A DNA stretch of 64,000 nt from Candidatus Hydrogenedentota bacterium (GTDB taxonomy: Bacteria > Hydrogenedentota > Hydrogenedentia > Hydrogenedentales > SLHB01). The stretch covers positions 41,000 to 104,999 of the forward strand of contig JABWCD010000001.1 in assembly GCA_013359265.1 (NCBI GenBank). Reading direction: 5' to 3'. Positions 1,566-61,998 of the stretch are shown one piece after another; within the stretch, counting starts at the first letter, position 1; each line of letters starts with the position of its first letter. A program made the position numbers and the translations under genes. The notes under the pieces are model-generated. The model searched no databases, was not told the origin of the DNA, and saw only the letters and a program-made list of their open reading frames with translations.

Positions 1566-2252
1566 CTACGCGCCAGCCGGAGGAATGCTCTGCAATTCGT
1601 TCGCGTGGTGGCGGATGATGCGTCCTTCGACGAGATAGATGACGTCCTCCGCGATGTTGGAGGCGTGGTCCGCGATGCGCTCGATGTATCGCGAAACACC
1701 GAGCAGATGTATATAGCTGTACGCCGCTTCCGGTTGTTCGCGGATGCAGCGTTCGGTGCTCACGTACATATCTCGATTGATGGCATCGACCTCGTCGTCC
1801 GCGGCGATGACGGCGTTCGCGGCGGCGACGTCGAGATTTACAAGCGCGTCGAGACTCTTGTGCAGCATGGTCTGAGCTTTCTGCGCCATTCCGGGAAAGT
1901 CATATGGAATATCTACGCGCGGCACGGTCGACAAGAAGAGCGTGCGCTCGGAAATATTCACGGTTGCGTCGCCGATGCGCTCCAATTCGGTGTTGATTTT
2001 GAGTACGGCGATGATAAAGCGCAGGTCGTGCGCCACGGGCTGGTGCAACGCCAGGATTTTTTGGCAGTCTTCCTCGATATCGACTTCCATCTGATCAATT
2101 ACGGTGTCCGCGTCGATGACCGATCGTGCGACGGCCGTATCGCGGTCGGCGAACGCATGGATGGCGCGGTACACGGCCTCTTCCACCAGCGTGCCGAGGT
2201 CGAGAATTCTCTTTTTCAGTTTGTCGATTTCGTTTTGGAGATGCCTGGACAT
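1566..2252 (-). CDS. phoU: phosphate signalling complex protein PhoU
   Basis: 228 aa; two PhoU repeats; typical N-term MSRHLQNEIDKL; last gene of pst operon. Confidence 0.9.
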   Translation of the reverse strand: MSRHLQNEIDKLKKRILDLGTLVEEAVYRAIHAFADRDTAVARSVIDADTVIDQMEVDIEEDCQKILALHQPVAHDLRFIIAVLKINTELERIGDATVNISERTLFLSTVPRVDIPYDFPGMAQKAQTMLHKSLDALVNLDVAAANAVIAADDEVDAINRDMYVSTERCIREQPEAAYSYIHLLGVSRYIERIADHASNIAEDVIYLVEGRIIRHHANELQSIPPAGA

Positions 2253-2286
2253 TTCGTGTTCTCTCTAGCAGTTGCGGATCCGTGCG

Positions 2287-3054
2287 CTAACCGTAGCGGC
2301 CGGAGACGTAGTCTTCCGTGCGTTTGTCCTTTGGGTTTTCGAATATGTCAACGGTCGGCCCGAACTCGACCATGTCGCCAAGCAACATGAAGGCCGTTTC
2401 GGTAGCGACGCGCGCGGCTTGCTGCATGTTGTGCGTAACGATTACAATCGTATACCTTTCGCAGAGGTTCCACATGAGTTCTTCGATGTGGCCCGTCGCG
2501 ATAGGATCTAACGCGGAACAGGGCTCGTCCATGAGCAAAACTTCCGGCTTTACCGCGACGACGCGCGAGATGCATAGGCGTTGCTGCTGCTCCGGCGAGA
2601 GCGAAAGCGCGGCGCTGGACAGCTTGTCTTTGACGTCGTCCCACAGGCCCGTGGCGCGCAGGCTCTTTTCAACAATTTCGTCCATTTCCGGGCCGCGTGC
2701 CATCCCGTGAACGCGCAAACCATAGGCGACGTTTTCTTCGACCGTTAACGGAAATGGGTTGGGCCGTTGGAACACCATCCCGACGCGCCGCCGCAGGCCC
2801 GCCAAATCGACCCCCGGCCCGTGGATATCCGACCCGTCCAGCAGGATTTTGCCATCGATACGCACACCTTTGATGAGGTCGTTCATCCGGTTCAGGCAGC
2901 GCAGCAGCGTTGACTTGCCGCATCCCGACGGCCCGATGATTGCAGTCGTCATTTTCGGTTTGATTCGAAGGCTCACCTTGTTCAGGGCCTTGAACTTTCC
3001 GTAGAACAGGTCCAAGTCCTCGGTCTGAATCTTGTGTTCGTTGGGGCTATTCAT
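2287..3054 (-). CDS. pstB: phosphate ABC transporter ATP-binding protein PstB (copy 2 in operon order)
   Basis: Walker [13 protein letters not shown] signature LSGGQQQRL-like ([12 protein letters not shown]), Walker B LLMDEP, PstB-typical N-term. Confidence 0.9.
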
Positions 3055-3824
3055 CCGAATCGTCCGGTGAGGTACTCGTCGGTGCGCGGGTTCTCCGGCT
3101 TGGTGAATACCTGTTCGGTAGGCCCGGTCTCGATGAGCTCCCCCATGAGAAAGAAGGCGATCCGGTCGGACGCCCGGCTGGCCTGTTTTGTGTTATTGGT
3201 GACCAAAATGATGGTATGCCGCGCGGCGAGTTCTGCAAGCGCATCTTCGATTTTGGCGGTCGAAATGGGGTCGAGTCCAGAACACGGTTCGTCGAGAATC
3301 AGCACGTCCGGGTTCAGCGCGAGGACACGCGCAAGACACAACCGCTGTTGTTGCCCTCCGGAGAGATTTGTTGCGGGTTCCTGGAGGCGGTCCTTGACCT
3401 CGTCCCAAATTACCGCGGATTTGAGGGAGGATTCCACGCGTTCGTCAAGCGTCGTCTTGTCGTTGATGCCGGCCAGACGCAATCCAAAAACGAGATTCTC
3501 GTAGACGGAGCGCGGTAACGGCACGGGCACCGCGTAGACCATGCCGACGCGCCGGCGCAAGGCAGCGACGTCGACATCCGGGCTGTAAATGTCCCGTCCG
3601 TCGAGCAGCACAGTTCCGGAGAACGAGAATTCGTAGACGAGGTCGTTCAGCCGGTTGATGCAACGCAGGAAGGACGTCTTGCCGCTGTTTGCCGGCCCAA
3701 TAATCGCCAGTCGCTGGTTGGGAAAGATGTCGAGATTGAGCTTCCGAAGCACTTCCTTTCCGGAGTACCGGACCGTCAGATCGCGAATCTGGATTTTGGG
3801 ATTGACCGCGGCGGCGTCCGTCAT
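3051..3824 (-). CDS. pstB: phosphate ABC transporter ATP-binding protein PstB (copy 1)
   Basis: Walker [10 protein letters not shown], signature [13 protein letters not shown], Walker B LILDEP; 4-nt overlap with pstA. Confidence 0.9.
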
Positions 3825-4660
3825 TGCAGGCTCCGCGAGAAGCGATTCAATAACCAGTATGCAACCGCGTTAAGGAGCAGTATCGAAATGATGAGCACGG
3901 ACGCGGTCGCGTAGGCGTTGTCCATCGAGATACCTTCGCGAGACAGGATGTAGAAGTGCAGCGCGAGCGTGCGCGACGAGTCGAACATCGAACCGGGCAG
4001 GTGCAAAGCCGACCCGGCGGTCAACATGACGGCGGCAGTCTCGCTGATGCTGCGCCCGACGGAGAGGACGATTCCGGTGCAGATGCCCGGCGTCGCCGAC
4101 GGCAGGACCACGCGAGTGACCATCTGCCAGCGGGTGCTGCCAAGGCCATAACTGACTTCACGGTAGGAGTACGGCACGGCGCGAATTGCTTCCTCGGCCG
4201 TACGAATGATTGTGGGCAGCACCATCAATGCCAGCGTCAGCGCACCGGAAATCACGCTCAAGCCCATGCCGAGCGTGATGGTGAAAAACACAAAACCGAA
4301 CAGGCCAAAGATGATCGAGGGAATGCCGGCGAGACAGTCCGCGCCGAAGCGGATAATCGACGTCAACCGGCTTTCGCGCGTGTACTCGGTGAGATAGATT
4401 GCAGTGGCGACACCCACGGGCGCGGCGATAATCACCGCCAACCCCGCCACATAGACGGTCCCGACGATCATCGGGAAGATGCCGCCCATCCGCCCCATCC
4501 GCCGTGGAGACTGCAGAAGGAATTCCAGGGTAATGTGGGGCACGCCATGTGCGAGAATGTACGCGATGATGAACAACAACACGCTGACCGTAGTGCCGGC
4601 GAGCAACCACATGATGCCGACGGCCACGCGTTGCGCAGCGGTCGGAGACATGACCCTCAT
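3821..4660 (-). CDS. pstA: phosphate ABC transporter permease PstA
   Basis: C-terminal 280 aa of track ORF 3821..5656 is a 6-TM PstA-like permease (EAA-like loop RTAEEAIRAVP); ATG at 4660 overlaps pstC stop (ATGA); upstream 330 aa of the track ORF is out-of-frame overlap with pstC and rejected. Confidence 0.8.
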   Translation of the reverse strand: MRVMSPTAAQRVAVGIMWLLAGTTVSVLLFIIAYILAHGVPHITLEFLLQSPRRMGRMGGIFPMIVGTVYVAGLAVIIAAPVGVATAIYLTEYTRESRLTSIIRFGADCLAGIPSIIFGLFGFVFFTITLGMGLSVISGALTLALMVLPTIIRTAEEAIRAVPYSYREVSYGLGSTRWQMVTRVVLPSATPGICTGIVLSVGRSISETAAVMLTAGSALHLPGSMFDSSRTLALHFYILSREGISMDNAYATASVLIISILLLNAVAYWLLNRFSRSLQ

Positions 4661-5514
4661 CGGCCACCACCGCGAACGCCGCGCTTGGCAATGAGCAACG
4701 CGGCGGTATTCAGAATCATGATGATTATGAACAGCGTGACCGCCGTGGCAAACAACGCGTCCCGGTGTTTTCCGGAAGCGTACCCCATTTCGAGCGCAAT
4801 GTTGCTGGTGAGTGTGCGCACGGCGTCGAGTGGACCGTGCGGGATTTCGAGCGTGTTGCCGGCGACCATGATGACGGCCATCGTTTCGCCGACGGCGCGT
4901 CCCATACCCAAAATAATCGCGGCGACGATTCCGGAACGCGCCGCCTTCAGCAGGACCATGTAGGTGGACTGCCACTCTGTAGCGCCGAGTGCAATCGAAC
5001 CTTCCCAATACGATCGGGGCACGGCCTTGATTGCATCCACGGAGATGCTGGTAACCGTTGGCAGGACCATCACGCCGAGCACAATCGATGCGGCAAGCAC
5101 GGACAACCCCGGCCCGCCCAGATGCGTGCGAATCAGCGGCGCAATGGTTACGACGCCGATGAACCCGTAAACGACCGAGGGAATTCCGGCCAGGAGTTCG
5201 ATAAGCGGCTTTAGAATTGCGGCGATTTCGCGGGGGCAAAATTGCGTCAACACAATGGCAAGGCCAAGTCCAAACACGGTGCCGATGATCATGGCGCCGG
5301 CAGTGACCGCCAGCGAGCCGACGATCATGGACAGGATGCCGAAGCTTCCGTTCTTTGGGTCCCAATCGAGCGAGAGAAAGAACCCACGCGCACCTGATTC
5401 GATTATGAGGGGCAGGCCCGATTTGAAGATGAATACTGTAATCAACGCGAGCCCGGACACCGCCGAGAACGCCACGATCATCAGCGCAGCCGCTATGAGT
5501 TTGTCCTGTCTCAT
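4657..5514 (-). CDS. pstC: phosphate ABC transporter permease PstC
   Basis: 285 aa multi-TM permease, conserved loop SISVDAIKAVP; adjacent to pstS. Confidence 0.85.
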   Translation of the reverse strand: MRQDKLIAAALMIVAFSAVSGLALITVFIFKSGLPLIIESGARGFFLSLDWDPKNGSFGILSMIVGSLAVTAGAMIIGTVFGLGLAIVLTQFCPREIAAILKPLIELLAGIPSVVYGFIGVVTIAPLIRTHLGGPGLSVLAASIVLGVMVLPTVTSISVDAIKAVPRSYWEGSIALGATEWQSTYMVLLKAARSGIVAAIILGMGRAVGETMAVIMVAGNTLEIPHGPLDAVRTLTSNIALEMGYASGKHRDALFATAVTLFIIIMILNTAALLIAKRGVRGGGR

Positions 5515-6323
5515 TTCGCTCGCACGAGGCCTTCCGACTCGAGAGTGCGTTGCCCTTCAGGTGAAAGCACGTAATCCATAAACCGCTGTGCTTCGGGTCG
5601 AAGCGTCCCTTCCGTGATGAACAAGAACGGCCGGGCAAGCTTGTATTGGTCAGCAATTACGTTTTCGCCCGTCGGCTCGACGCCGTCCACTTTTATTGCT
5701 TTCAGCTCCGAGCCGACCAGGCCCAGTGACATGTAACCGATCGCGGCGGGATCGCCCTTGACCAGCTCTTTCACCGCTCCGTTCGATTCCTGCGTCAGCG
5801 CGGCGCGCGAGATTCGCTCTTTCCCCATGACGAGGTGCGTGAAGCTCTCGCGCGTGCCCGACCCTTCCTCACGCGTAATTGGCCGGACGGGTCCGTCTTC
5901 TCCGCCGACATCCTTCCAACTGCGAATTGAACCGCTGAATAGCGCGCGCAACTGGTCCGTTGTCAGTTCGGTCACTGGATTGCCCGGGTTGACCACGATT
6001 GCCAGGCCGTCCCGGGCGATTGTCGTGCCGGAGAACTGCTTTTCTTCGTCCTCGGTTAGCGAGCGCGAACACATGCCGATGTCGGCGAGTTGATTCGCAA
6101 CTGCCTGGAGTCCCGCCGTGGAGCCGCCGCCTTGCACCTCGACGTTTTCTTCAGCGTGTGCGGCCATGTATTCCTCTGCGAGGAATTCGGCGAAGGGCTG
6201 GACCGACGTGGAACCGACAACGTTCACCGCGCGCTCATGTTTTCCGCCGCACCCCAGTGCGAGAAAGCACAGTGCGACGGTCAAACAGAGTGACGATATC
6301 CACTCCGCTAACGATTTCGACAT
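5511..6323 (-). CDS. pstS: phosphate ABC transporter substrate-binding protein PstS (lipoprotein)
   Basis: PBP fold motifs GSTSVQPF, GGGSTAG; lipobox LALGCGG after chosen start MSKSLAEW (alternative upstream start at 6365). Confidence 0.8.
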   Translation of the reverse strand: MSKSLAEWISSLCLTVALCFLALGCGGKHERAVNVVGSTSVQPFAEFLAEEYMAAHAEENVEVQGGGSTAGLQAVANQLADIGMCSRSLTEDEEKQFSGTTIARDGLAIVVNPGNPVTELTTDQLRALFSGSIRSWKDVGGEDGPVRPITREEGSGTRESFTHLVMGKERISRAALTQESNGAVKELVKGDPAAIGYMSLGLVGSELKAIKVDGVEPTGENVIADQYKLARPFLFITEGTLRPEAQRFMDYVLSPEGQRTLESEGLVRAK

Positions 6324-6794
6324 GGTTCCCCGCGCGCCAGAATCCGGGACATCGGGTACGGACACCCCGGCCCTACTTCCCTCTCGTGATTAGCCGATAG
6401 GGTATCATTCAACGACCGTGAAGTCCAAAAGAATGCCGCCCCGAACAATCGTTGGATGGTGAAGTGCACACCCTATTCCCGCGGTAAACGGAAGCCGGAT
6501 TCGCTCCTCTATCGCGTTCCAAGCAACGGAGAAAAAGTTGGGATATCGGGTTGGTCGAAACTCCAACGGGGATCATCCCACGAGTTTGCACCCGGCGTTT
6601 CCGATGGTTCTCCATGAAGGGCTTCTCGGAGCCGCATCAGGAACTCGAGACCTGGTGCGTGAGCGGTACGGTTTCCAGCATGCATCGGCGGGCAGCCGAC
6701 GTCGTTTCGCTTCGTTGCGATTCGGGGATCTATCTCGTAGACTGACACCTCTCTACCTGAGGCGCACCGCGATGTCTGGGAGCTGTGGAGTCAG

Positions 6795-7943
6795 GTGCAG
6801 CACGATAGCGGCACAATTATTGTTGGAGCTGGTCCATCCGGTCTGGCGATGGCGGCGTGCCTCAAGCGCGCCGACGTGCCGTTCGAATTGATCGAACGCG
6901 CGGAGCACGTGGGATCGGCTTGGCGGTCGCATTACGAACGGCTGCACCTGCATACGGTCAAGAAACACTCGAACCTGCCGTACTTTTCGTTCCCGGCCGG
7001 CGTCGAGAAGTACCCGTCGCGCCAGGACGTAGTCGACTATCTCGATGCGTATATGCGCCATTTTGACATTGAGCCGCGCTTGGGCGAAGAAGTCATATCT
7101 ATCCGGCGAGATAACGGCGCCTGGCAAACGACGACGACGCGCCGCGCGTACACATCGCAGCGGGTGGTGATCGCGACAGGGTACAACCGAAGGCCGGTGA
7201 TACCCACGTGGCCCGGCGAAGAGTCGTTTCAGGGCGCCATCATACACAGCGCGGAGTACCGCAACGGAGAACCGTACCGCGGCAAACGCGTGCTCGTGGT
7301 CGGGATTGGCAACACGGGTGGCGAGATCGCAATCGATCTCTGCGAATATGGCGCTGCGCCGGTGCATATCAGCGTGCGCGGTCCCATCAACGTCATCCCG
7401 CGCGACTACCTTGGTACGCCCGCGCAAGTGTCCGGGATCATGTTGAGCAAACTCCCGCGCGCGGTGCGGTACCCACTGAGCAAAGCGATCGCACGCGTTG
7501 CGACGGGAGACCTTTCGCGGTACGGGATTCGTTGGCCGGAGTTTGGGCCCATCGAGAGCGTCGAACGGTTTGGCCGCGTCGCCCTTATCGATATCGGCAC
7601 CATCGATTTGATCAAGCGCGGCGAGATCACGGTCGTGCCGGGCATAAAGCGTTTCACCGAGCGCGGAGTTGCGTTCATGGATGGCGCTACCCACGAGTAC
7701 GACGCGGTGATCCTTGCGACGGGATACAAACCGCGCATCGAAGATTTTCTCCAAGATGCGCATGACGTAACCGACGAAGCCGGATACCCCGTTCCGCCGG
7801 CTGGCGAGTCCAAATGGCCGGGCCTGTACTTTCTCGGCTTCGTAAATCCTCCGACCGGATTGCTGCGGCAGATCGCCATCGATGCGCAGCGTATCGCCGC
7901 CGAGATTGCGTACACGGCGACCCGGAGTCACGCTCATGCGTAA
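6795..7943 (+). CDS. flavin-containing monooxygenase (FMO/Baeyer-Villiger-type) FAD/NADPH oxidoreductase
   Basis: FAD dinucleotide motif IIVGAGPSGLA near N-term (GTG start), second Rossmann VLVVGIGNTGGEIA, FMO-like ATGY motif; 382 aa. Confidence 0.8.
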   Translation: MQHDSGTIIVGAGPSGLAMAACLKRADVPFELIERAEHVGSAWRSHYERLHLHTVKKHSNLPYFSFPAGVEKYPSRQDVVDYLDAYMRHFDIEPRLGEEVISIRRDNGAWQTTTTRRAYTSQRVVIATGYNRRPVIPTWPGEESFQGAIIHSAEYRNGEPYRGKRVLVVGIGNTGGEIAIDLCEYGAAPVHISVRGPINVIPRDYLGTPAQVSGIMLSKLPRAVRYPLSKAIARVATGDLSRYGIRWPEFGPIESVERFGRVALIDIGTIDLIKRGEITVVPGIKRFTERGVAFMDGATHEYDAVILATGYKPRIEDFLQDAHDVTDEAGYPVPPAGESKWPGLYFLGFVNPPTGLLRQIAIDAQRIAAEIAYTATRSHAHA

Positions 7944-9501: not shown

Positions 9502-10118
9502 TTGCGCAAATGCTTTGGCAATCGAACGGCGACCTTGCGAAGTCGTGCCTCGATCATCCCTTTGTGCTGGGATTGGCGGACGGCTCGTTGCCGCCGCAGC
9601 GGTTCGCGCGGTACATGGAACAGGACGCGTATTTTCTCGATGCGTTCGCGCGGGCGTATGCGATGGCGCTGGCCAAGAGCCCGGATCGCGAAGGGTTCTT
9701 CGCGTTCAAGGATTTGTTGGACGGTGTGCTTGATGAACTTCAACTGCACGAAGAGTTGGCTGCGCGGCACAATCTGAACCTCGAACCGGAGCCGTCGCCC
9801 GCTACGGTTTCGTATACGGATTTCCTGTTGCGCGTTGCGGCAATGGCGCCGGTGGGAGAGATCGTTGCGGCGATGACACCGTGCATGCGGCTGTACGCGT
9901 GGCTGGGACAAGAACTGGCGGAGAAGTTGTCAAAGACGAGCCCGTACCGAGATTGGGTGATGACGTACAGCAGCCCGGAGTTCGAAGGGCTTGCGACTCG
10001 GCTCGAGGACTTATTGGACAAGTACGGTAAAGGGCTCGACAAGGTCCCCGCGAATTACCGTCGCGCGATGGAGTTGGAGTTCGCTTTTTTCGATGAGGCG
10101 TGGCATTTGAATGTGTAG
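9498..10118 (+). CDS. TenA/thiaminase-II (heme-oxygenase-like fold) family protein
   Basis: TenA-like motifs FVLGLADGSLP, YMEQDAYFLDAFARAYA; ATG overlaps DJ-1 stop (ATGA). Confidence 0.7.
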   Translation: MIAQMLWQSNGDLAKSCLDHPFVLGLADGSLPPQRFARYMEQDAYFLDAFARAYAMALAKSPDREGFFAFKDLLDGVLDELQLHEELAARHNLNLEPEPSPATVSYTDFLLRVAAMAPVGEIVAAMTPCMRLYAWLGQELAEKLSKTSPYRDWVMTYSSPEFEGLATRLEDLLDKYGKGLDKVPANYRRAMELEFAFFDEAWHLNV

Positions 10119-13100
10119 AGACGCTGGCGGGGCATCTCGGAATCGATACGTCCAATGGGTCCCTTGGGTCCTATGGGTAACTTTGTTTTCCGGTATTTCT
10201 GGCGCAGGTGCTATTACCGTTGAGCCGTTGTGGACCGCCGAGACCCACTCGATCATGGAAGGTCCGCCGATGACCGTCGATTTGGATGGCGACGGCGACG
10301 CGGAGATCGTGACGGCGGCCTACGAGGAGCTGATCGCGATTGACGGCGATGGCAAGGAACGTTGGCGTTTCGACGCCCGCGGGCGATACCAGACGTGCCC
10401 CGCAATTTGGGAACGCGATGGCGCTCCCCCACTCCTTTTCGCCGGCGACAATACGGGTCAATTCACGTGCCTGGACGGCGGGGGAAAGGTCATCTGGCAA
10501 GTCGATACGAAACCGATCTTTTGCGCGGCGCCGGCAATCGGGGATCTCGATGGCGATGGCACGATGGAAGTCGTGCAGGGCGACAAGTCGGGCATGGTGC
10601 ACGCGTTCAATGCGCTGACCGGCAAAGTAGTGTGGCAAACGCAAATCGAGGGGGAATGTTCGAGCCCGGCGCTGGCGGATTTGGACGGCGACGGCAAACG
10701 TAACGTTGTGATTGCGACGGGCGCAGGCAAGGTGTTCGCGCTTGATGCCGCCGGCGCAGTGCTGTGGACGTACGCCATGGATGGAACGACACCAGATTGG
10801 GCTACATGCTCGCCAATCGTTTTTAAGGTCGGCGACGGTAAACGTCGTATCGCCTGCTCATCGGGTAATGAGACTGTCCATTGCATCGATGCGAAAGGCA
10901 AACAAGTTTGGTCACGAACGACGCGCGGCGCCGTCGCGTCGACGTTGTCGGCGGGCGATATCGACGATGATGGTTGGACCGACCTGTTCGCAGTGACCCA
11001 GTTGGGTGTTGTGTACCGATTTGACGAAGATGGGAGGACACGCTGGCAAATCGACTCGCAGGGGCGTTCGCTCGCGCCAGGTGCGCTTGTCGACATCGAT
11101 GGAGACGAAAAACTCGAATACGTGTTGTGCACGCAAAACGGCAATCTGATCGTGATCGATAACAACGGAGACGTCGCGTTTTCCTATCAGTTCAAACACC
11201 GCACGATAAACGTGACGCCTGCATTTGGCGAGATAGCGCCGGAGCGCGAGGGAATTGAATTTGTCGTTACGGGGGGCGAATCCGGACGCGTGATTTGCTT
11301 CGGCGCCCCCGCGCGCGTGGGCACGCGCAGCCAGTGGCGAAGCTATCGCGGCGATTCGCGGCTTGTCGCGGCATGGCTTCCGGAAGAGCAGGATGCTGTT
11401 GCCAGCATCGCGCCCGTGGATTTGGACGCGGACGGACTGGTCTGCGGCGACGTAGTTCGTTGTCGTGTCATGAACCATCAGCCGGAACGAAGCGATCTTT
11501 TCGCGGAAGTAGCCATCGAGGACCCCGCCGGCGAGATTCGAAGCGCGCTCGGGCGCGTCGACGGTGCGCAAACGGTCGTCGAACTGCCTGTTTCGATACG
11601 CCAGGCAGGAACGTACGCGCTGAAGTGGCGCGTCAAGGACGGCAACGGATTTGTGCTTGCGTGCGGCGAACAGAAAACGGATATCACGCCATTCAAGAAT
11701 GACCGATCCCTCCTGGAGATGACGTTGCTTCAATTGCGTGCGGCTGTAGGCGGCGCGCGGCCTGCGGATGACGACGGCAGTTTTCGCGCGGCGTTGCACT
11801 CGGAGACGAAGGAAATTCTTAGGGTTGCGGTCCCCTTACAGACGCGGTGGGGCCGCACGAATTCGCTTGCGCAAGAGGATTGGCAGGACCTCGAACGTGA
11901 CACGGCGGAATTGAACGCGCGATGCCGGCGCGCCGCCAAATTCGCAGATATGGTAGATATGGGTTTGATGAAAAGTTTTAAGGCAGGGCTGGTTCCTTTT
12001 CAGGAATCGGATGGGGACAGCCGCGATCTTGGAAAACGCGTTCCGCAATTGGTGTTCCTCCCGTATCCGATAAAGCGTCGCTGCGTGGTTGGGGAGCACG
12101 AGCCGGTTTCGATCAAATTGTTCAACGCGTCGAATGAAGCGCTTCGTCCATCCATAAAGGTTACTTCAGCGTCGGCGGGGATTCGGACTCAAGTGCTCGC
12201 CCCGAAAGAGGCGCCCACGAATCTCGGCGGCACGGCCTGGGACGCGCTCGTGCCAAGTGGCGATGCGCAGTTGGAGATTCCCCCTCTCGAGTCGCGCGAG
12301 ATTTGGCTTGATATCGATGCAACAGAGGCAAAACCAGGAGAGCACAGAATAGACGTTTCCGCCCAGACAGAATCCGGCAATACAGAAGTAAACGTTTTTC
12401 TGGATATTTTGCCGTTTGCCATGGCGGGTTACGATCAAATGCGCATGTGCGCCTGGGCGAAGTATGACGAGCACGCCGTGAGGGACCTTCTGGCGCACGG
12501 GAACACGGTATTCATCGGGAACCTGCCGCCCGCAACGGTGACGGACGGAACATCTCCCGGCATTGTGTGCGACTATGGCCCGCTGAACGGGTTTCTCGCA
12601 CCGCTGAAGGGACACGACGTGTACCTGCTGTTTCACGGCATTCCGCAGTTGGGCGTGCCGATGGAAAGCGACGAATATGTGCCGCGTTTTGCGGAGTACA
12701 TGAAGTTGGTGCTCGCGCATTTGGCGGCGAATGGGTTCGATGAGGAGCACGTTGCGTTGTATCCGTACGACGAGCCGGGCGGCAACGGTTGGAACGTCGT
12801 GAAACAGTACACGGCGTTCGCGCAGCAGGCGTTGAAGGCGCTGCCAACCCTGAGATTCTACGTCAACGGAGGGGCGGACCTTCCGAAGTTCGAGGAAATG
12901 GCGGAGTACGCGGGAATTTGGAGTCCGGGCATCTACATGCTGCCGGAGCGGTCGCCGGAGATGGAACTGCTGCGAAAAACCGGCAAGCCGTTGTGGTCGT
13001 ACGACTGCGCATACCTGTTTTCGCGGCCGATCGGCGCAAACACGAAGACGGTCAACGTCGTCGCACAATATCGATTGTCGGCGATCATCGCAATGAACTA

Positions 13101-13485
13101 CGGCGCGACGGGAATCGGCTGGTGGTGCTACAACCACGGGCCGTCGATGTGGGACCCGATACCGTTCGAGTATCCGCTCGTGTATACGAACGAGGACGGC
13201 ACGGTGACGACATCGCGGCGGTGGGAAGCGGTGCGCGAGGGAGTGGAGGACGCGCGGATATTGATTGCGCTACGGGAAAGGCTGGGCGATGATTCCGTGA
13301 GTGGCGAGGCGAAAGAGAAAATCCGGCACTTATTGGAGAAAACCGTTCCGGAACTGTCGAAGCAAACGATGGAATATGCGCGATTGGGTGTCGCGCGGTA
13401 TGTGATTGATGAGACGCATAACGACGAGTTGGTGGAGCGGCTGCGGGCGGAGATGATGAATTGTGTGGCGGCGGTGGGGAGATGA
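10111..13485 (+). CDS. large secreted protein: N-terminal PQQ/FG-GAP-like beta-propeller repeats plus C-terminal glycoside-hydrolase-like (TIM-barrel-like) domain
   Basis: 1124 aa; hydrophobic signal-like N-term; about 7 repeats with DLDGDG...VV..G..G.V.A motifs (FG-GAP/BamB-like); start overlaps TenA stop by 8 nt. Confidence 0.65.
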   Translation: MCRDAGGASRNRYVQWVPWVLWVTLFSGISGAGAITVEPLWTAETHSIMEGPPMTVDLDGDGDAEIVTAAYEELIAIDGDGKERWRFDARGRYQTCPAIWERDGAPPLLFAGDNTGQFTCLDGGGKVIWQVDTKPIFCAAPAIGDLDGDGTMEVVQGDKSGMVHAFNALTGKVVWQTQIEGECSSPALADLDGDGKRNVVIATGAGKVFALDAAGAVLWTYAMDGTTPDWATCSPIVFKVGDGKRRIACSSGNETVHCIDAKGKQVWSRTTRGAVASTLSAGDIDDDGWTDLFAVTQLGVVYRFDEDGRTRWQIDSQGRSLAPGALVDIDGDEKLEYVLCTQNGNLIVIDNNGDVAFSYQFKHRTINVTPAFGEIAPEREGIEFVVTGGESGRVICFGAPARVGTRSQWRSYRGDSRLVAAWLPEEQDAVASIAPVDLDADGLVCGDVVRCRVMNHQPERSDLFAEVAIEDPAGEIRSALGRVDGAQTVVELPVSIRQAGTYALKWRVKDGNGFVLACGEQKTDITPFKNDRSLLEMTLLQLRAAVGGARPADDDGSFRAALHSETKEILRVAVPLQTRWGRTNSLAQEDWQDLERDTAELNARCRRAAKFADMVDMGLMKSFKAGLVPFQESDGDSRDLGKRVPQLVFLPYPIKRRCVVGEHEPVSIKLFNASNEALRPSIKVTSASAGIRTQVLAPKEAPTNLGGTAWDALVPSGDAQLEIPPLESREIWLDIDATEAKPGEHRIDVSAQTESGNTEVNVFLDILPFAMAGYDQMRMCAWAKYDEHAVRDLLAHGNTVFIGNLPPATVTDGTSPGIVCDYGPLNGFLAPLKGHDVYLLFHGIPQLGVPMESDEYVPRFAEYMKLVLAHLAANGFDEEHVALYPYDEPGGNGWNVVKQYTAFAQQALKALPTLRFYVNGGADLPKFEEMAEYAGIWSPGIYMLPERSPEMELLRKTGKPLWSYDCAYLFSRPIGANTKTVNVVAQYRLSAIIAMNYGATGIGWWCYNHGPSMWDPIPFEYPLVYTNEDGTVTTSRRWEAVREGVEDARILIALRERLGDDSVSGEAKEKIRHLLEKTVPELSKQTMEYARLGVARYVIDETHNDELVERLRAEMMNCVAAVGR

Positions 13486-13573
13486 GGACGGAAGTCGTGA
13501 GTGCTCTTTCGTGCTCGTACTCGTAGTTGATCGTACCGGCTGTGCGATCGCTGGACTACACCAAGATCGAATC

Positions 13574-13620
13574 GGAGCTTTTCAAGAGTGCGTTCCCAAG
13601 CCGGAGCTTGGGAACGAGGA
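13574..13620. repeat. dispersed palindromic repeat family A copy (GGAGCTTTTCAAGAGYGCGTTCCC...GGGAACGAGGA)
   Basis: Hairpin GTTCCCAAGCCGGAGCTTGGGAAC; shares 40+ nt with copies at 25228, 59241, 61716 and 61806. Confidence 0.7.
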
Positions 13621-14574
13621 TTCGCTTGGTGCGAGGAGCAGGCAACCTACCAATACGACGTCTTCGCCGAGGGCGCAGGGGACAATTTCGTATTTGCCGC
13701 GAAAAGCGCCGAAGCAGAGGGTTGCTACATGGCCGCGAATTGGATTCAGTAGCACGTCGCCGAGGAGGCTGACGCCGCCGCCGATAGCGATGCGTTCAGG
13801 ATGAATGAGCGTGATGACATTTGAGAGCGCCACGCCGATGCCTTGCGCAATATCGTTCAGTTCATTCCGCGCGAATGGGTCGCCGGCGCGCGCGGCCTCC
13901 CCGAGGATGGCGCAAGTGATGCGCTGAGGATCGCCATCGCAAAGGCGATGGAGCGGCGATCCGGGCGCGAGTCGCGCGGAAGCGCGAACGCGTTTCTCGA
14001 TGGACCAACCACTGCAGAGGTTCTCAAGTTTGTTGAAGCCGCCGGGTGTGAAGTTCGTCCAATCGGGAATGTAGGTGTGGCCGATTTCCGCGGCGCCGAA
14101 CCCTTGGCCGTCGTGGAGCATGCCGTTTATAACGAAGCCACCGCCGATGCCGCTGCCGATGTTCATGTAGCAGAAGGTACGCGTGCCCTTGCCCGCGCCG
14201 CACACGTACTCGCCCCAGCACGAGACGCTGGAGTCGTTGCCGACGAAGACGGGTACGCCGAAGCGCGATTCGAAGTATTGCTTGAGCGGGTAGTCGCTCC
14301 AGCCGCCAACCTGGTGCGAAACGAGCGCTTTGCCCGTTGCAGTTTCGATCGGTCCACCGAAACCAACGCCAATACCGCTGACGCGAGCACCCCGCGATTG
14401 CGCTTCATTAAGCAGCTTTGGAACCGATTCGTCAAACCACGAGAGTATCGCTTGCGCGCCTTCGGATGCAGGCGCGGCGCCGCGTTCGCGAGTGATAATT
14501 TTACCGTCGTGTGTGCCGAGGGCAGCCTGGAGCTTTGTGCCGCCAATTTCGAGGGCGAGTACTAGATTTGACAT
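13582..14574 (-). CDS. ROK family sugar kinase (glucokinase-like)
   Basis: N-term ATP motif LALEIGGTKL, ROK zinc motif CxCGxxGC-like region (CYMNIGSGIGGGFVING); last about 19 codons are encoded by a dispersed repeat element. Confidence 0.8.
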   Translation of the reverse strand: MSNLVLALEIGGTKLQAALGTHDGKIITRERGAAPASEGAQAILSWFDESVPKLLNEAQSRGARVSGIGVGFGGPIETATGKALVSHQVGGWSDYPLKQYFESRFGVPVFVGNDSSVSCWGEYVCGAGKGTRTFCYMNIGSGIGGGFVINGMLHDGQGFGAAEIGHTYIPDWTNFTPGGFNKLENLCSGWSIEKRVRASARLAPGSPLHRLCDGDPQRITCAILGEAARAGDPFARNELNDIAQGIGVALSNVITLIHPERIAIGGGVSLLGDVLLNPIRGHVATLCFGAFRGKYEIVPCALGEDVVLVGCLLLAPSESSFPSSGLGTHS

Positions 14575-19555: not shown

Positions 19556-19720
19556 GCTGGTTACGGCCGCGAGGTGGAGTATTCGATGCGAAGACCTGCT
19601 GAGACTTTTGATTTTCCGGGGACCGTACCATAAACTTTTCGGTTCGTTCGACAATGCGCATGCCATCAAGTATGCGTAGTAGGCGGGCGAAGACAGGTAA
19701 ACCGGGTTAAATCGAAGAGT

Positions 19721-19758
19721 CGATTACGATTACGAGCACGATTACGAGCACGAGCACG
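19721..19758. repeat. hexanucleotide repeat block (CGATTA)n(CGAGCA)n
   Basis: cgattacgattacgagcacgattacgagcacgagcacg. Confidence 0.65.
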
Positions 19759-23678: not shown

Positions 23679-23729
23679 TCGAAGCCACCTGCGACACGCC
23701 CGACTTGAGATTGCCGACGGGGCATTTCG

Positions 23730-23800
23730 GGTGGGGCGAGGCTCCGTCCGAGCCGATCAGACTGAGTGCATAGGCGGCTCGGACAGAGCCTCGCCCCACC
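23730..23800. repeat. repeat family B inverted pair (GGCGGCTYGGWCNGAGCCTCGCCCCACCC), 27-bp stem hairpin between convergent genes
   Basis: 23730-23756 is reverse complement (1 mismatch) of 23774-23800; same 29-mer at 30441-30468. Confidence 0.65.
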
Positions 23801-23815
23801 CGTTCGTACCGCGTT

Positions 23816-24429: not shown

Positions 24430-25167
24430 ATGAACAATGTTCCTCGCATGACGCGTACACGAGTCGCATTGCGTGTAGTCCTCCTTACAGGATGCGCATT
24501 CGCGTTGGGATGTGTGTCCCGCCCATATCTTGTCGGCCTGTTTGACCGCGAACCCGTTCCGGCGGGGACGCCCACATCGCGGCCCGAGGGCACGGGTTGG
24601 ATCGATCTGCTGGACGAGGAGCATGCGGCGCTGTGGAAAAACGTGGGCGACGACATGGACATTTTTAAGGTGCAGGATGGTGTGCTGCACATTTTCGGGC
24701 GGACGGTGTATCCGTTGCGGTATGTGACGTATACGGGCGAGACGTTTGGCGATTTCGACCTGCATCTCGAGTATAAGGTTGCGCGGCGGGCAAACAGTGG
24801 CGTGTTCCTGCGTACGCAGCCGAACGATCCCGTGAACCGCGGGTTCGAGGTGCAAGTGTTGGACGACTTCGGAAAGCGCCCGACGAAGAACAGTTGCGGC
24901 GCGATTTACGATGTGGTCACGCCCATGTTCAACATGTCGCGACCCGCGGGCGAGTGGAATTCGTTTGATATTTCGGTGAAGGGGAAGAAGGTTGTCGTCG
25001 TAATGAACGGCTGGACGATCATCGATACGGACTTGAGCAAGATGACGACGCCGCTGGGGAAGTTTCCGATAGCCTACAACGATCTGCCGTTGGTGGGAAA
25101 CGTCGCGCTACAGGACCACGGCGGCGAGGTGTGGTATCGGAATGTGATGGTACGGCCGGCGGTGTGA
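24430..25167 (+). CDS. DUF1080 (3-keto-disaccharide hydrolase / LamG-like) domain lipoprotein
   Basis: Signal plus lipobox LTGCAF; motifs NSGVFLR, QDHGGEVWYRNV characteristic of DUF1080. Confidence 0.7.
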   Translation: MNNVPRMTRTRVALRVVLLTGCAFALGCVSRPYLVGLFDREPVPAGTPTSRPEGTGWIDLLDEEHAALWKNVGDDMDIFKVQDGVLHIFGRTVYPLRYVTYTGETFGDFDLHLEYKVARRANSGVFLRTQPNDPVNRGFEVQVLDDFGKRPTKNSCGAIYDVVTPMFNMSRPAGEWNSFDISVKGKKVVVVMNGWTIIDTDLSKMTTPLGKFPIAYNDLPLVGNVALQDHGGEVWYRNVMVRPAV

Positions 25168-25227
25168 TGGTTCGAATTGTTGGGTGCGTGTGCACGACTA
25201 AATTGGGTCAATTGGGTCCGATCCAAA

Positions 25228-25276
25228 GCGGAGCTTTTCAAGAGCGCGTTCCCGAGTCGGAGCTTGTGAACGAGGA
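25228..25276. repeat. repeat family A copy
   Basis: GCGGAGCTTTTCAAGAGCGCGTTCCCGAGTCGGAGCTTGTGAACGAGGA. Confidence 0.7.
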
Positions 25277-25279
25277 TGG

Positions 25280-25807
25280 TTAAGGCCCACGCTCAGCCGC
25301 CGGAGTGATGGCTCCGGAACGCCGGAATTCCACATGACCATCGGCGAAGAGACAATTCATGCCACGAGGGATATGTGCATCCTCGTGTTTCTCTTGAATA
25401 ACAATGACGTCTTTGTTTCCCTCGTCAGCGCCAGTTATCACGATCTCGTACGACGTCCACGAATCGATAGAGTTTAGATCGCCGACGACGTCGGTAGACG
25501 ACGGGCATACAAAGACCGACGGATTCGAGAGGTATTTGGGGTAGAGTTCGCTAAGGTTTTGCGGCAGTTGGTTGTTATGGTCGCCCGCGAACATCTTGCA
25601 CGAGATTCCGATTTGTTTGAGGTTGTTTTGGCACGATGCGCGGCGGGCGGCTTCACGGGCGCGGGCGAGGGCTGGCAGCAAGATTGCCGCGAGGATTGGG
25701 ATGAGCAGCGGCACTACGATGGCCACCGCGATGAGCAAACCCGGCGTTGAACTGGAACTCTTCACGCGCGGCGGCTGGAAATGAGGGATTGGCGGCGGCT
25801 CGGACAT
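25280..25807 (-). CDS. DUF1559 (H-X9-DG) family protein with degenerate prepilin-type N-terminus
   Basis: [10 protein letters not shown] and [10 protein letters not shown] motifs; N-terminal hydrophobic segment [14 protein letters not shown] lacks GFTLIE cleavage/methylation motif. Confidence 0.7.
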
Positions 25808-30409: not shown

Positions 30410-30440
30410 CAAAATGGGGAAAAAGCAACACGTTTGTGGC

Positions 30441-30468
30441 GGCTTGGTCGGAGCCTCGCCCCACCCAG
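30441..30468. repeat. repeat family B single copy
   Basis: GGCGGCTTGGTCGGAGCCTCGCCCCACCC between convergent VOC and PPTase genes. Confidence 0.6.
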
Positions 30469-57099: not shown

Positions 57100-57253
57100 T
57101 CCCGATGCACACCGGAGTAGCAGTACCGTGCTCGTACTCGTAGTTCTTCGCGTATTCCTCGTCAGCTTTCTCGCCTTGATCGAAGCTCCCGCACGCCCGT
57201 AATTCGGGCCGTGGATAGCATCCCGCAAAAGGAGCTCGGCCTTCTATACAATC

Positions 57254-57370
57254 TCGTGCTCATGCTCATCCTCGTGCTCGTGCTCGTGCTCGTGCTCGTA
57301 ATCGTAATCGTAATCGATTCAGTTCGAGTGTCGAGCCACGAGTACGATGACGACTCACGAGCACGAGCAC
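57254..57370. repeat. hexanucleotide microsatellite block (CTCGTG)n-(AATCGT)3 ... (CACGAG)n, potential long hairpin
   Basis: Direct reading of tandem hexamers; same composite units at 19721-19758. Confidence 0.7.
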
Positions 57371-57471
57371 GTTTTCCTCGTTATCTCTGCTTTGCTCCTC
57401 CCACCACGCGGTTGCACTTCCTCCCCATCAAGATCACAATACCCCCATTCACATCGGGGGGAACACCGGCC

Positions 57472-59238
57472 ATGCGCGCAATTCGTTTCTCGATTCTTCT
57501 CGGCTTCGCCGCCGCTGTCTCCGCCGTCGCGGTAGAATCCATCCCGGACAAGACCGTCGTCCTAACCTTCGACGATGCCGTAAAGTCGCACCGCACGTTC
57601 GTAGGCCCGCTGCTGAAGGAATACGGGTTCGGCGCGAGCTTCTTCGTGACCGCCCTCTGGATGTCGGACACCGAAAACTTCATGAACTGGCAGGACATCG
57701 CCGAACTGCACCAGATGGGCTTCGAGATTGGCAACCACAGTTGGAGTCACTCGAACTTCGGCAACCCGAAATACGCCGCTCAACTCGAAGGCCAAATCTT
57801 CCTCGTCGAACAGGAACTCGCGAAGGCCGGCGTCCCCAAGCCCACGAGCTTCGCGTGGTGCGGCAACACGTTCTCGCCCGAAGGCGTTGACGTGCTGAAG
57901 AAATGCGGCTACACGCTCGCCCGGCGCGGCATGCAACCCGAGATCCCCTACGGCCAGATCAAGCCCGGCCCGATGTATGCACCCGCGAACTACGACCCGC
58001 TGCTCATCCCGTCCGCGGGCGACGCGTATCCAAGCTGGACGCTCGACGACTTCAAGCGCGTCGTCGACCGCGCGAAAGACGGCACAATCGCCGTTGTCCA
58101 GTTCCACGGCGTGCCCGACATCGCGCACCCCTGGGTCCACACCCCGCCCGAACGGTTCCGCGAATACATGGACTACCTCAAGCAAAACGGTTTCAACGTG
58201 ATTGCGATGCGCGGCCTCGCGCGCTACATCGACCCGGAACAACCGGCGAAAGACGCCATGACCATGGTCCGTTACACCTCCCAGCCCGTCGACCTCCCCG
58301 CCGAAGTCCACGCCACCCGCGCGAACCCCGCGTTCTGGTTCAACGTTATGAAAGCGCACAACTACACCGAAGAGGAGCTCGCTTCGGTGTTCGGCTGGCC
58401 CGTCAAAACGTTGCAGGCGCGCGCGCCGAAATTCGCGGACGTGCCGCCTGCATGGCCGCCCGCCGGCAAGAAACCCCGCATCGTCGTCCTCCCCTATCCG
58501 GGCGGACGCCACCCCCGCATCGGGTTCCTCGACGGCGCGGTCAGCCCGCTGCGCGGCTCGAAAGTCAGCATCTTCGCCCCGTGGCAGGACGGCGATCGGG
58601 AATCGACAGGAGCGCGGGCGCCCGGACCTCGGACCGATCCGAACTACGTCGTGCTCGATATTCCCGAGGCCATCTTCAGCAACCTCGGGCTGACGTTCCT
58701 TGCGCACACCCACGTGCAAAGCATGTGGGACAAGCAACACCAGCCCATCGAAAACAACGACTGGGAACTGCTTCCCAACGGCGATCTCGAAAACGAATGG
58801 ACCTTGCCCAACAACATAAAGTTCGGCGCGCGCGTCATGCCCAAGGAGGACGCCGTCGATCTCGAACTCTGGCTCGAGAACGGCTCCGGACAACCGCTAA
58901 CGGGCCTCCGCACCCAAATCTGCGCCATGCTCAAGGGCATGCCCGGCTTCAACGCACAAACGAAAGACAATAAACGGTTCGACGGAAGCGTCGCGTCTAC
59001 CAGGATGGACAGCGGGGAACGCGAAATCCTGATCGCGTTCGACCGCTGCGGCCGCGTCTGGGGCAATGAAAAATGCCCCTGCATGCACTCCGACCCTGTC
59101 CTACCCGACGCCGCCCCCGGCCAACGCGTCAGCGTCAAGGGACGCCTCTGGTTCCTCGACGCGATCGCGAATCGTGACAAGGAAGTCCGCCGCGCCCAAA
59201 GAGAATTCGCCGCGCTCGAACGCCCACCGGTGAAGTAA
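57472..59238 (+). CDS. polysaccharide deacetylase (CE4-like) with C-terminal extension, secreted
   Basis: Signal MRAIRFSILLGFAAAVSA; CE4 motifs LTFDDA, HSWSH; ATG at 57472. Confidence 0.75.
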   Translation: MRAIRFSILLGFAAAVSAVAVESIPDKTVVLTFDDAVKSHRTFVGPLLKEYGFGASFFVTALWMSDTENFMNWQDIAELHQMGFEIGNHSWSHSNFGNPKYAAQLEGQIFLVEQELAKAGVPKPTSFAWCGNTFSPEGVDVLKKCGYTLARRGMQPEIPYGQIKPGPMYAPANYDPLLIPSAGDAYPSWTLDDFKRVVDRAKDGTIAVVQFHGVPDIAHPWVHTPPERFREYMDYLKQNGFNVIAMRGLARYIDPEQPAKDAMTMVRYTSQPVDLPAEVHATRANPAFWFNVMKAHNYTEEELASVFGWPVKTLQARAPKFADVPPAWPPAGKKPRIVVLPYPGGRHPRIGFLDGAVSPLRGSKVSIFAPWQDGDRESTGARAPGPRTDPNYVVLDIPEAIFSNLGLTFLAHTHVQSMWDKQHQPIENNDWELLPNGDLENEWTLPNNIKFGARVMPKEDAVDLELWLENGSGQPLTGLRTQICAMLKGMPGFNAQTKDNKRFDGSVASTRMDSGEREILIAFDRCGRVWGNEKCPCMHSDPVLPDAAPGQRVSVKGRLWFLDAIANRDKEVRRAQREFAALERPPVK

Positions 59239-59240
59239 AG

Positions 59241-59310
59241 CTCTCGTTCTCAACTGGAAAGTCGGGAACGAGGAGGGTACTGGAAAGTTGAGAACGAGGA
59301 GGGAACACAA
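59241..59310. repeat. repeat family A partial tandem copies
   Basis: CTGGAAAGTCGGGAACGAGGAGG and CTGGAAAGTTGAGAACGAGGAGG units. Confidence 0.6.
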
Positions 59311-59923: not shown

Positions 59924-61048
59924 ATGAGAGGAAGAGTACGAGGCTTTACGCTGATCGAACTGCTCGTCGTCATCGCGATCATCGCGATTCTCGCGGCAAT
60001 CCTCCTGCCGGCGCTGGCGCGCGCGCGCGAGGCGGCCCGCCGGGCATCGTGCCAGAACAACCTCAAGCAGTTGGGGATTGTCCACAAGATGTTCGCGAAC
60101 GAAGCGTCAGAAAATCGTTGGCCGCAGAACGGTATCGACCACACGAATACCGGCTTCAACGCGACCAAGCGCATGAATGCCTACCACATGTGGAAGGACA
60201 TCATTCCCGAGTACCTGTCGGACATCAAAGTCCTGACCTGCCCGTCGCAGGGTCGCCAGGGCTTGTATGCCGCGACGGAGCTCAACAATGCCCGCAACCT
60301 GAACGCGGGTTGCGATCCGTCGATCGTCACGTATGCCACGACGAACAACGAACGCGACAATCCCTGCTTCGGCAAGACAGGCGTGACCGCGGCGGACATC
60401 GCCACCTATGGCGTCACCGGTTCGCCGCCGGCGCGCTGGTTCAATGGCTGCGACGTTCTCCCGGATCGCTGCCAGGTGCAGCCGCACACCGACCTGGTGA
60501 AGACGGGATACAATGACGTCCGCGCGTACCGTTACTTCGGGTGGGCCATCAATCCCGACTGGATGACGAACCTCGAAGACTACTGGTACGTCGGCATGCT
60601 GTACGCGAAGAATAGCTTGAGCGTCGGCGTAGAGGTTACCGGTGGTACCACCGGCACCAACATCACGCCCGCCGTTTGGTCAAACCGCAACAACGACCGC
60701 ACGTACAACTTGCCGTCCGGTAAGGTGGCATTTGTAGGCCGTCTCCGCGAAGGGCTCGAGCGGTTCTTCATTACCGACATCAATAACCCGGGCGGCAGCG
60801 CGGCGGCACAGTCCAACATCCTCGTGATGGCGGACGAGGCCCGCGCGTACAATGGTTCGGGTCAGGTGTTCGGCGGTTTGGACGGCTCTGGCCGCTTCAA
60901 CCATGTCCCGGGCGGCGTGAACGCCCTGTACATGGATGGTCACGTGGAATGGCTCAAGTATGTCACGCCGGGTGGTCGCACTTGGCACGTCAACGAGTTC
61001 GCATACAAGCGTCCGGCTGGCGTTACCGCGACCCCGGACTTTCCGTAG
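59924..61048 (+). CDS. DUF1559 family protein with canonical prepilin-type N-terminal cleavage/methylation motif and H-X9-DG C-terminus
   Basis: [36 protein letters not shown]. Confidence 0.85.
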
Positions 61049-61990: not shown

Positions 61991-61998
61991 GGACCATC

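Follow-up and report, generated by a model that had tools for sequence, protein, structure and literature searches.

The closest described systems to the repeat considered here are repetitive extragenic palindromes (REPs) and the REP-associated tyrosine transposases (RAYTs), enzymes of the HUH/Y1 type, that go with them. They include the REPs and bacterial interspersed mosaic elements (BIMEs) of Escherichia coli with TnpA-REP (yafM, PDB entry 4ER8; Group 2 or subclass 2.2), the REPIN–RAYT systems of Pseudomonas (Group 3 or subclass 2.5) and the CGTC-tagged REPs (Di Nocera et al. 2013, PMC3733652), and related HUH/Y1 enzymes are known from insertion sequences (ISs) of the IS200/IS605 family such as IS608 and ISDra2. 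Head-to-head dimers and a position downstream of open reading frames (ORFs) are typical of REPs (PMC3733652), and a passage in PMC12306157, citing Liang 2015, has REPs that lie 15 nt or less from a stop codon stall ribosomes. A further RAYT class, the TnpA-REP-like subclass 2.6 (Group 5 of Bertels), has been described mostly from Bacteroidetes, with 'atypical secondary structures' flanking it (Quentin et al. 2018, PMC6006769), and no link of Group 5 RAYTs to abundant 16-mers was found (PMC5581495). Here we describe a repeat found in a stretch of 64,000 nt, referred to as the window, from Candidatus Hydrogenedentota bacterium (GCA_013359265.1, contig JABWCD010000001.1, positions 41,000 to 104,999), which an earlier note on this DNA had named dispersed palindromic repeat family A. 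The family is in all likelihood a REP family, that is a population of non-autonomous single-strand hairpin elements, with a RAYT as its partner.

The 47-nt consensus of the earlier note matches the window exactly at 13574-13620 and with one mismatch at 25230-25276, the number of matches expected by chance in shuffled sequence being 0.00, and the 5' module GGAGCTTTTCAAGAGCGCG, with up to three mismatches, is found at four sites (13574 +, 25230 +, 61745-61763 - and 61817-61835 +) against a chance expectation of 0.04. A covariance model built from 48 copies, taken from the window and from related metagenome-assembled genomes (MAGs), finds four full-length copies with scores of 69-78 bits (E 1e-16 to 1e-18), spanning 13561-13622 (+), 25217-25278 (+), 61715-61776 (-) and 61804-61865 (+) and numbered 1 to 4 below. 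The same copies were recovered by a repeat finder together with an inverted pair, the arms of which (61719-61770 and 61810-61861) are 52 nt long and 88% complementary. The existence of the family, and of the inverted pair that had been placed at 61716/61806, is thus borne out. The claim of at least five copies holds in part: since the site 59216-59276, previously given as 59241, scores only 17 bits and has the large hairpin without the 5' module, the count in the window becomes four full copies and one partial relative. The other sites stand as listed, except that the one given as 25228 is actually at 25230. Two features had been missed, namely that the element reaches about 8 nt further 5' (CAAAGCG), making a second small hairpin, and that the hairpin's 3' arm (..GTTGGGAACGAG..), lacking its partner, forms tandem repeats at 61866-61970 and 59278-59302.

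The unit is about 55 nt long and consists of a small 5' hairpin (HP1, CAAAGC-GGA-GCTTTG), the linker CAAGAGYG, an 11-bp hairpin (HP2, CGTTCCCAAGC-nGGA-GCTTGGGAACG) and a final AG. The 48 copies align over 63 columns with the consensus nnAAGAnCAAAGCGGAGCTTTTCAAGAGYGCGTTCCCAAGCnGGAGCTTGGGAACGAG, in which hardly any variation is seen in the linker of 8 nt, CAAGAG(Y)G, or in the final AG, and the position of the tag of known REPs is occupied by a head of about 30 nt with its own hairpin. Stem cells are paired in 93% of cases, with changes on both sides at seven pairs; none of 500 shuffles reaches such pairing, which falls to 25-49% in controls with slid partner columns, and RNAalifold returns the same two helices. 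HP1 (CAAAGC/GCTTTG) is compensated to CGAAGC/GCTTCG in window copy 4 and in loci L072 and L120 of related genomes, and to CGAAAC/GTTTCG in Scalindua, and the HP2 stem CGTTnnnnnnn/nnnnnnnAACG occurs as CCCAAGC, ACCAAGC, ACCAAAT, ACGAAAT, CCAAAGC and CCCAACT, each with a matching partner arm. The small loop is GGA in 33 of the 48 copies and AGA in 14, the large loop is nGGA or GGAA in 40, and AGA, AGAA or ACGA loops are found in a sizeable minority; among stem mismatches G-U exceeds A-C by 12 to 5, a difference that does not reach significance (p 0.14). Between the ends ..AAGAnCAAAGCG and ..GGGAACGAG there is no inverted repetition. In single-strand folding, copy by copy as proposed earlier, four of the five in the window do far better than shuffles (DNA z -3.5 to -6.2), and copy 2, which carries two stem mismatches, does not. 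Variants with a nested palindrome, TTCGCCGCGGCGAA, in the loop of the large hairpin were seen at L114 7198-7270 and L115 7022-7087.

The partner gene ties the repeat to a known enzyme family. In each of the ten RAYT loci examined (L083, L109 and L126-L133) the RAYT gene stands between two head-to-head copies, the 5' heads of both facing it. The tblastn queries, E. coli YafM and an IS200 TnpA, gave only weak hits (E 0.42); one of these pointed to L083, as a lead only, and was then confirmed independently with NCBIfam, the reconstructed protein scoring 102.6 bits on NF047646, 'REP-associated tyrosine transposase' (cutoff 80). In L083 a frameshifted gene (6439-6975) lies between copies at 6978-7033 (+) and 6365-6426 (-), and in L109 the gene (2363-2806, -) lies between copies at 2816-2877 (+) and 2226-2266 (-). 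A database search returned 2817 homologues, many of them named RayT or transposase of Candidatus Hydrogenedentes, and all eight further loci examined have the same flanked layout. The flanking copies of L126 (MAG SJ475), L127-L128 (AMX-MBFR-84, or a sample with the same protein) and L129-L131 score 66-81 bits where the element is whole, with lower scores for the upstream copy of L128 (51.5 bits) and for the downstream copy of L131 (26.3 bits), which is cut by the contig end. Diverged two-hairpin versions of 31-49 bits flank the gene in L132 (Candidatus Scalindua) and L133 (a Nitrospiraceae-labelled MAG). The downstream flanking copy begins 0-3 nt past the RAYT stop codon, a layout also seen behind ordinary genes. 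The inverted pair of the window is the RAYT-flanking arrangement minus the gene, a REPIN-like doublet.

All seven intact RAYT proteins that were tested pass NF047646 (102-112 bits) and fail the IS200 model NF033573 (19-25 bits, cutoff 55). Both NHLH, the HUH motif, and YIHNNP are invariant in these RAYTs, and the RAYT alignment (A2, 178 aa) is characterised by ENH[LVIMFA]H[LM], VWQEG and Y[IVL]H[NESDQ]NP. A profile made from the RAYTs has 4ER8, the structure of TnpA-REP, as its best PDB match; the profile was needed, as a single-sequence PDB search with the RAYT found nothing.

Compared with the E. coli system, the family has in common the many short extragenic palindromes, the RAYT gene set between inverted REPs, the placement of copies mainly downstream of ORFs with many near stop codons, and an HUH/Y1 enzyme whose profile leads to 4ER8. 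It differs in lacking the GTAG tag and in its unit of about 55 nt, which combines two hairpins with a conserved linker of 8 nt, while the enzyme carries NHLH, WQ and YIHNNP where subclass 2.2 has DHLH, WE and YIHYNP (PMC6006769, Table 1) and does not lead to 4ER8 in a single-sequence search; the copies are mostly singletons rather than BIME clusters. With the REPIN–RAYT systems of Pseudomonas it shares head-to-head doublets that fold as a long hairpin (-58 kcal/mol in the window), a RAYT between two inverted REPs and the turnover of copies between related genomes. In contrast to those systems, however, doublets are a minority here (four doublets, or eight copies, among 68), and whereas Pseudomonas REPINs are largely lineage-specific, this repeat is conserved across genomes whose genes are about 71-76% identical and in a diverged form across phyla.

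The likeness to IS200/IS605 elements lies in the related HUH/Y1 enzymes, the recognition of imperfect hairpins on one DNA strand, the asymmetric ends without terminal inverted repeats or target duplication, and an orientation bias linked to the replication strand, to which the lying of the element on the G-rich strand in 53 of 68 copies corresponds; unlike them, the proteins fall short of the IS200 model, the gene is outside the repeated unit, and that unit is of about 55 nt and not an IS of 0.7-2 kb. CGTC-tagged REPs resemble the family in their 9-11 bp stem with outer A-T pairs (TT/AA after CG), 4-nt loop, short unpaired tail, preference for head-to-head dimers and position downstream of ORFs, but here there is no unpaired CGTC tag, the CG beside TT being itself paired, and CGTC repeats are without an associated transposase whereas this family has one. 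The length (178 against 179 aa) and the signature NH[LIV]H, WQ and YIH[QN]NP (PMC6006769, Table 1) match those of subclass 2.6, a placement by motif signature and not by a tree. As that subclass has been described it has no defined repeat consensus, whereas here the repeat is abundant, and the hosts are Hydrogenedentota together with Scalindua- and Nitrospiraceae-labelled MAGs. Apart from the GTAG or CGTC tag, and with a high copy number in the window genome as a probable trait, the family has the features of a REP/REPIN–RAYT system; because that tag is absent it should not be filed in the GTAG or CGTC superfamilies (PMC3733652), and it is seen, on its sequence features, as an atypical REP/REPIN family tied to a subclass-2.6-like RAYT. 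None of the papers searched names RAYTs or REPINs together with Hydrogenedentes.

How widely the repeat occurs was assessed by one pattern scan of a species-representative genome collection with a pattern of 17 specified bases, which was too loose: among the matches listed there were about 70 chance or coding matches (in Collinsella, Chlorobiaceae and clostridial genes) as well as at least about 45 unmistakable copies. Full copies among the matches listed come only from the Hydrogenedentota MAGs SJ475, P2IB.85 and AMX-MBFR-84, from SRR1506987_bin.88 (labelled 'uncultured bacterium') and from two Planctomycetaceae-labelled MAGs. The covariance model gives 63 copies above 25 bits in 38 loci, and SJ475 holds at least 37 copies in 23 loci. 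The earlier note had made its reading depend on further copies being found, and these dozens of copies in related Hydrogenedentota MAGs, with the RAYT flanked by them wherever it was examined, sustain its description of a REP-like dispersed family that is probably genome-wide. Between the window and an SJ475 contig two genes are 71-76% identical in nucleotides and the repeat copies 92-96%. In the Logan assemblies of SRR10914234-36 and SRR25608322, in which the window proteins are present, contigs break off within the repeat, the usual behaviour of a multi-copy element in short-read assemblies. The density in the window is four full copies and one partial copy per 64 kb, a genome-wide number being an extrapolation from this. 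Across the whole window no Rfam family attains its gathering score, and a permissive Rfam search of 61650-62010 gave only far-sub-threshold hits of microRNA type, which are due to the long inverted repeat.

The genomic context was analysed for 68 copies, namely the 63 from the 38 related loci and five from the window. Sixty-five of them lie outside called genes, and in the window, on a gene map supported by Pfam, the location between genes or at gene 3' ends that had been described holds with two overlaps, one with the end of a ROK-family gene in copy 1 and one with the stop codon at 59238. Between co-directional genes 33 copies are sense and eight antisense (p 1e-4), 26 of the 68 start 0-25 nt past the stop codon of a co-oriented ORF, and the distance to the downstream gene ranges from 6 to more than 2000 nt. 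The element strand is the G-rich strand in 53 copies (p 4e-6). Since orientation tracks both GC skew and gene direction, and the discordant classes are small, a replication-strand bias and a transcription bias are not separable. Head-to-head doublets with a spacer of up to 80 nt are those at 61715/61804 in the window, L072 2902/2970, L017 4838/4898 and L077 3465/3606, and no close tail-to-tail pairs occur among the copies of the window and the 38 loci. In the window the cumulative GC skew rises to about 33 kb, reaches a plateau and falls from about 50 kb, so that it changes sign inside the window; all singleton copies there, whether before or after the change, are on the + strand.

Turnover of copies is best seen by comparing L010 (SJ475) and L114 (bin.88), which are syntenic over about 7 kb at 70-80% identity, with three copies in the former and five in the latter, every one of them sense. 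Of six occupied gene junctions a single one is filled in both genomes, and seven of the eight copies are at junctions that are empty in the other; pairwise alignment of filled and empty sites places one copy directly past a shared TAA stop codon, and another as an insertion of about 70 nt between a gene end and the ribosome-binding site of the next gene. The filled and empty sites aligned for this pair show no target-site duplication, and the target of insertion appears to be located at TAA/TGA or immediately behind it. Behind one orthologous gene pair two copies are present in SJ475 and none in the window. Copies are thus gained and lost, since the occupancy of homologous junctions differs between species. 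A look for empty sites in closer strains by exact-protein look-ups gave the same strain or nothing. The same region appears in IMG/VR, where two 'viral' contigs (IMGVR_UViG_3300005688_000017 and IMGVR_UViG_2619618927_000002; L134-L140) carry 4-6 co-oriented REP copies each; both are 99.9% identical to parts of bin.88 (L060, L114) and syntenic with L010 and L106 of SJ475. As it is listed in these two contigs, the L010/L114 block may be a prophage that collected copies at different junctions in two species. In L028 of SJ475 (contig JADLHJ010000023) a 3-kb gene-poor stretch (3295-6415) has three copies of another repeat of about 45 nt (..GCGTGTGCCTCTATACATTAGCCCAACGTGTTGCA.., near 3420, 3965 and 4350) interleaved with two REP copies, and it has no counterpart downstream of the orthologous gene in the window.

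By analogy with E. coli TnpA-REP and IS200/IS605 (PMC3479197, PMC6006769), a RAYT encoded elsewhere in the window genome would recognise the folded top strand of the element, with the large hairpin and the conserved head (HP1 plus CAAGAG) taking the place of the GTAG guide tag. At the replication fork it would cut this strand in its single-stranded form and rejoin it, and copies would therefore spread in one orientation. As most copies are sense and just past stop codons, they would be transcribed into mRNA 3' ends or intercistronic regions, where the stable RNA hairpin (-13 to -27 kcal/mol) may hold up 3' exonucleases or make ribosomes stall at termination, as E. coli REPs do (work cited in PMC12306157). 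A role as mRNA stabiliser, put forward in the earlier note, is plausible by the same analogy and fits the strand bias and the placement just after stop codons.

Much of this evidence could also be read with the RNA as the primary function, the family being a transcribed regulatory structure (a CsrA-like or other protein site, a stabiliser of the 3' untranslated region, or a processing signal) whose spread and RAYT link are secondary. The bias of 33 sense to 8 antisense copies, the 26 that begin shortly past stop codons, the GGA usual in both loops (33/48 small, 40/48 large with nGGA or GGAA), the surplus of G-U over A-C mismatches (12 to 5), a sequence far better conserved than the neighbouring genes and 3'-arm arrays that reach up to a start codon would all suit such a structure. 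We nevertheless think it unlikely, as it does not account for the fixed head-to-head geometry around the RAYT gene in all ten loci, the occupancy of homologous junctions is not conserved, and the spacing to the downstream gene extends from 6 to beyond 2000 nt; AGA, AGAA and ACGA loops form a sizeable minority, the p value of the G-U excess is 0.14, nothing in Rfam matches, and the strand bias follows GC skew no less closely than gene direction, which is expected for single-strand transposition. A CsrA-type sponge or leader, suggested by the GGA loops, was set aside because the loops vary and the RAYT link accounts for the family. Promoter readings (ECF-type GGAAC..CGT, sigma-54 and sigma-70) were also rejected, nothing being conserved 3' of the element at a fixed distance, and a sigma-70 scan gave no match at the window copies. 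That the copies are Rho-independent terminators, alike only through a terminator sequence shared within the genome, draws on stable GC-containing hairpins downstream of genes and between convergent genes, but it is very improbable, because the tails after the window copies (GAGGATTCG, GAGGATGGT, GAGAATGCA and GAGTTAAAA) have no T-run and a terminator scan finds no terminator-like site at any of the five, which also disposes of the classical intrinsic terminators that had been suggested. Besides, the conserved stretch of about 30 nt 5' of the hairpin would be needless for a terminator, and copies also lie antisense, head-to-head, in 5' leaders and to either side of RAYT genes.

The earlier comparison with miniature inverted-repeat transposable elements (MITEs), here deletion derivatives of a DDE-type IS moved by its transposase, is understandable for a small, many-copy, intergenic repeat whose presence differs between genomes. 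It fails, however, in that the two ends do not form inverted repeats, no target-site duplication appears where filled sites are aligned with empty ones, and the only transposase consistently beside copies is the HUH/Y1 enzyme, so that we give a MITE hardly any credence. Least credible of all is a conserved coding motif or chance similarity: the core of the consensus is without a stop codon in all three forward frames and a few ORFs run into copies, as with the ROK C-terminus, but the chance expectation is 0.00-0.04, 65 of the 68 copies are outside called genes, and the variation is compensatory in the paired stems, which are the conserved parts, and not codon-like. An attC site, a CRISPR repeat and iterons were considered and rejected, as there are no R'/R'' cores and no regular spacers, and the arrays are of half-units only.

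For a REP family served by a RAYT there are also points that count the other way. Neither a GTAG or GT[AG]G nor a CGTC tag is present in the consensus of the 48-copy alignment on either strand, the unit exceeds a classical REP in length and forms two hairpins, and most copies are singletons. The 64-kb window holds no RAYT gene, so that the window organism's own enzyme is deduced from its relatives, and transposition, cleavage and an effect at the RNA level are likewise things that we infer. Two of the ten RAYT genes are disrupted, that of L083 by two frameshifts and that of L109 (2279-2806) by an in-frame TAG at the position of the Tyr of RRGY in relatives; these could be either decaying genes or assembly errors. 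The context statistics rest on a simple and crude gene caller, and since the loci were picked for their repeat content the copy densities in them are biased.

With the REP–RAYT association as the favoured explanation, a consensus, a structure and a covariance model are now defined for a REP family in a candidate phylum without a cultured model organism. It indicates that an abundant cognate repeat without a GTAG tag can go with a RAYT class known only for 'atypical secondary structures', extends the phenomenon of REPIN–RAYT systems as long-lived intragenomic replicators beyond Proteobacteria, and provides an unusually conserved repeat–enzyme pair useful for testing rules of recognition. For annotation, the copies account for contig breaks, odd gene C-termini (as in ROK) and long intergenic hairpins in these MAGs. 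A bolder reading, which we offer tentatively and regard as rather doubtful, is that a subclass-2.6/Group-5-type RAYT maintains a large population of two-hairpin REPs, near-unchanged across Hydrogenedentota genera and recognisable in MAGs labelled Planctomycetota (Scalindua) and Nitrospiraceae, and that the host may have co-opted copies as a layer of post-transcriptional control; it builds on the sense insertion behind stop codons, the GGA loops and the expandable 3'-arm arrays such as that at 61866-61970.

Turning to the individual copies, copy 1 (13568-13620, +, 75.6 bits) lies between the convergent genes 10111-13485 (+) and ROK 13582-14574 (-) and consists of a degenerate 5' hairpin region CGAATCGGAGCTTTT, the linker CAAGAGTG, the hairpin CGTTCCCAAGC-CGGA-GCTTGGGAACG and the tail AG, with folding energies of -13.7 (DNA) and -20.3 (RNA) kcal/mol. 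The ROK-family gene reads the antisense strand of this copy (13582-13626), from which its last 13 or so codons and its TGA stop (within CTCTTGA) come, and the ROK Pfam domain covers residues 6-316 of 330. Copy 2 (25224-25276, +, 69.4 bits) is a full copy in decay: its large hairpin carries two mismatches, the copy folds no better than shuffles (z -0.11 DNA, +0.41 RNA), and it lies in a 112-nt gap between the convergent genes 24430-25167 (+, 3-keto-disaccharide hydrolase) and 25280-25807 (-, DUF1559). Copies 3 (61715-61776, -, 78.0 bits) and 4 (61804-61865, +, 76.4 bits) are the left and right halves of the REPIN-like head-to-head doublet at 61715-61865, which has a 27-nt spacer with no gene between them, folds as a single strand into one long hairpin (-58.3 kcal/mol, z -10.5) and is placed between an ankyrin-repeat gene and a GH20b-like gene. 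Copy 3 has the hairpin variant CGTTACCAACT-GGAA-AGTTGGTAACG (DNA -14.1, RNA -19.7 kcal/mol), and copy 4, lying 134 nt upstream of the ATG (61999) of the GH20b-like gene, has the compensated 5' hairpin CGAAGC-AGA-GCTTCG (DNA -17.9, RNA -27.0 kcal/mol).

The hairpin-only relative (59238-59302, +, 17 bits) consists of CTCGTTCTCAAC-TGGAAA-GTCGGGAACGAG and one extra 3'-arm unit, GTTGAGAACGAG, giving two copies of period 26, and is without the 5' module; it folds with -7.3 (DNA) and -17.0 (RNA) kcal/mol, and it begins on the final base of the TAA stop codon (59236-59238) that closes the polysaccharide-deacetylase gene 57211-59238. Behind copy 4 there is an array of four further 3'-arm units (61866-61970, +, period 25; ..GGAAGGTTGGGAACGAG.., ..AAAGTCGGGAACGAG.., ..AAAGTTGGGAACGAG.. 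and ..AAAGGTTGGGAGCGAG..) without a 5' arm, which runs through the leader of the GH20b-like gene to about 30 nt from its ATG. Extra 3' arms are found at nine of the 68 copies, including those of L012, L084, L090 and L121, and the four-unit array of the window is the largest. Each unit could, from its sequence, pair with the single 5' arm.

The window also contains repeats of other kinds. One is palindromic too but unrelated, CGGGTGGGGCGAGGCTCCGTCCGAGCCG; its inverted arms at 23728-23755 and 23775-23802 are 96% complementary and 19 nt apart, with a further arm 6.7 kb off at 30440-30466. Intergenic tandem arrays of hexamers (CGAGCA, CGATTA and CGAGTA units) are present at 19717-19758 and 57253-57371, with a remnant near 13505-13530, and also in L114 at about 7100-7150 and L039 at 7790-7879; those at 19717 and in L114 stop about 20 nt before a start codon, and that at 57253 is oppositely oriented. 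Finally, a 124-nt inverted repeat (25581-25704 and 59979-60102, 77% complementary) represents the paralogous N-termini of the prepilin-type N_methyl/DUF1559 genes 25280-25807 (-) and 59924-61048 (+), each of which adjoins a REP copy.

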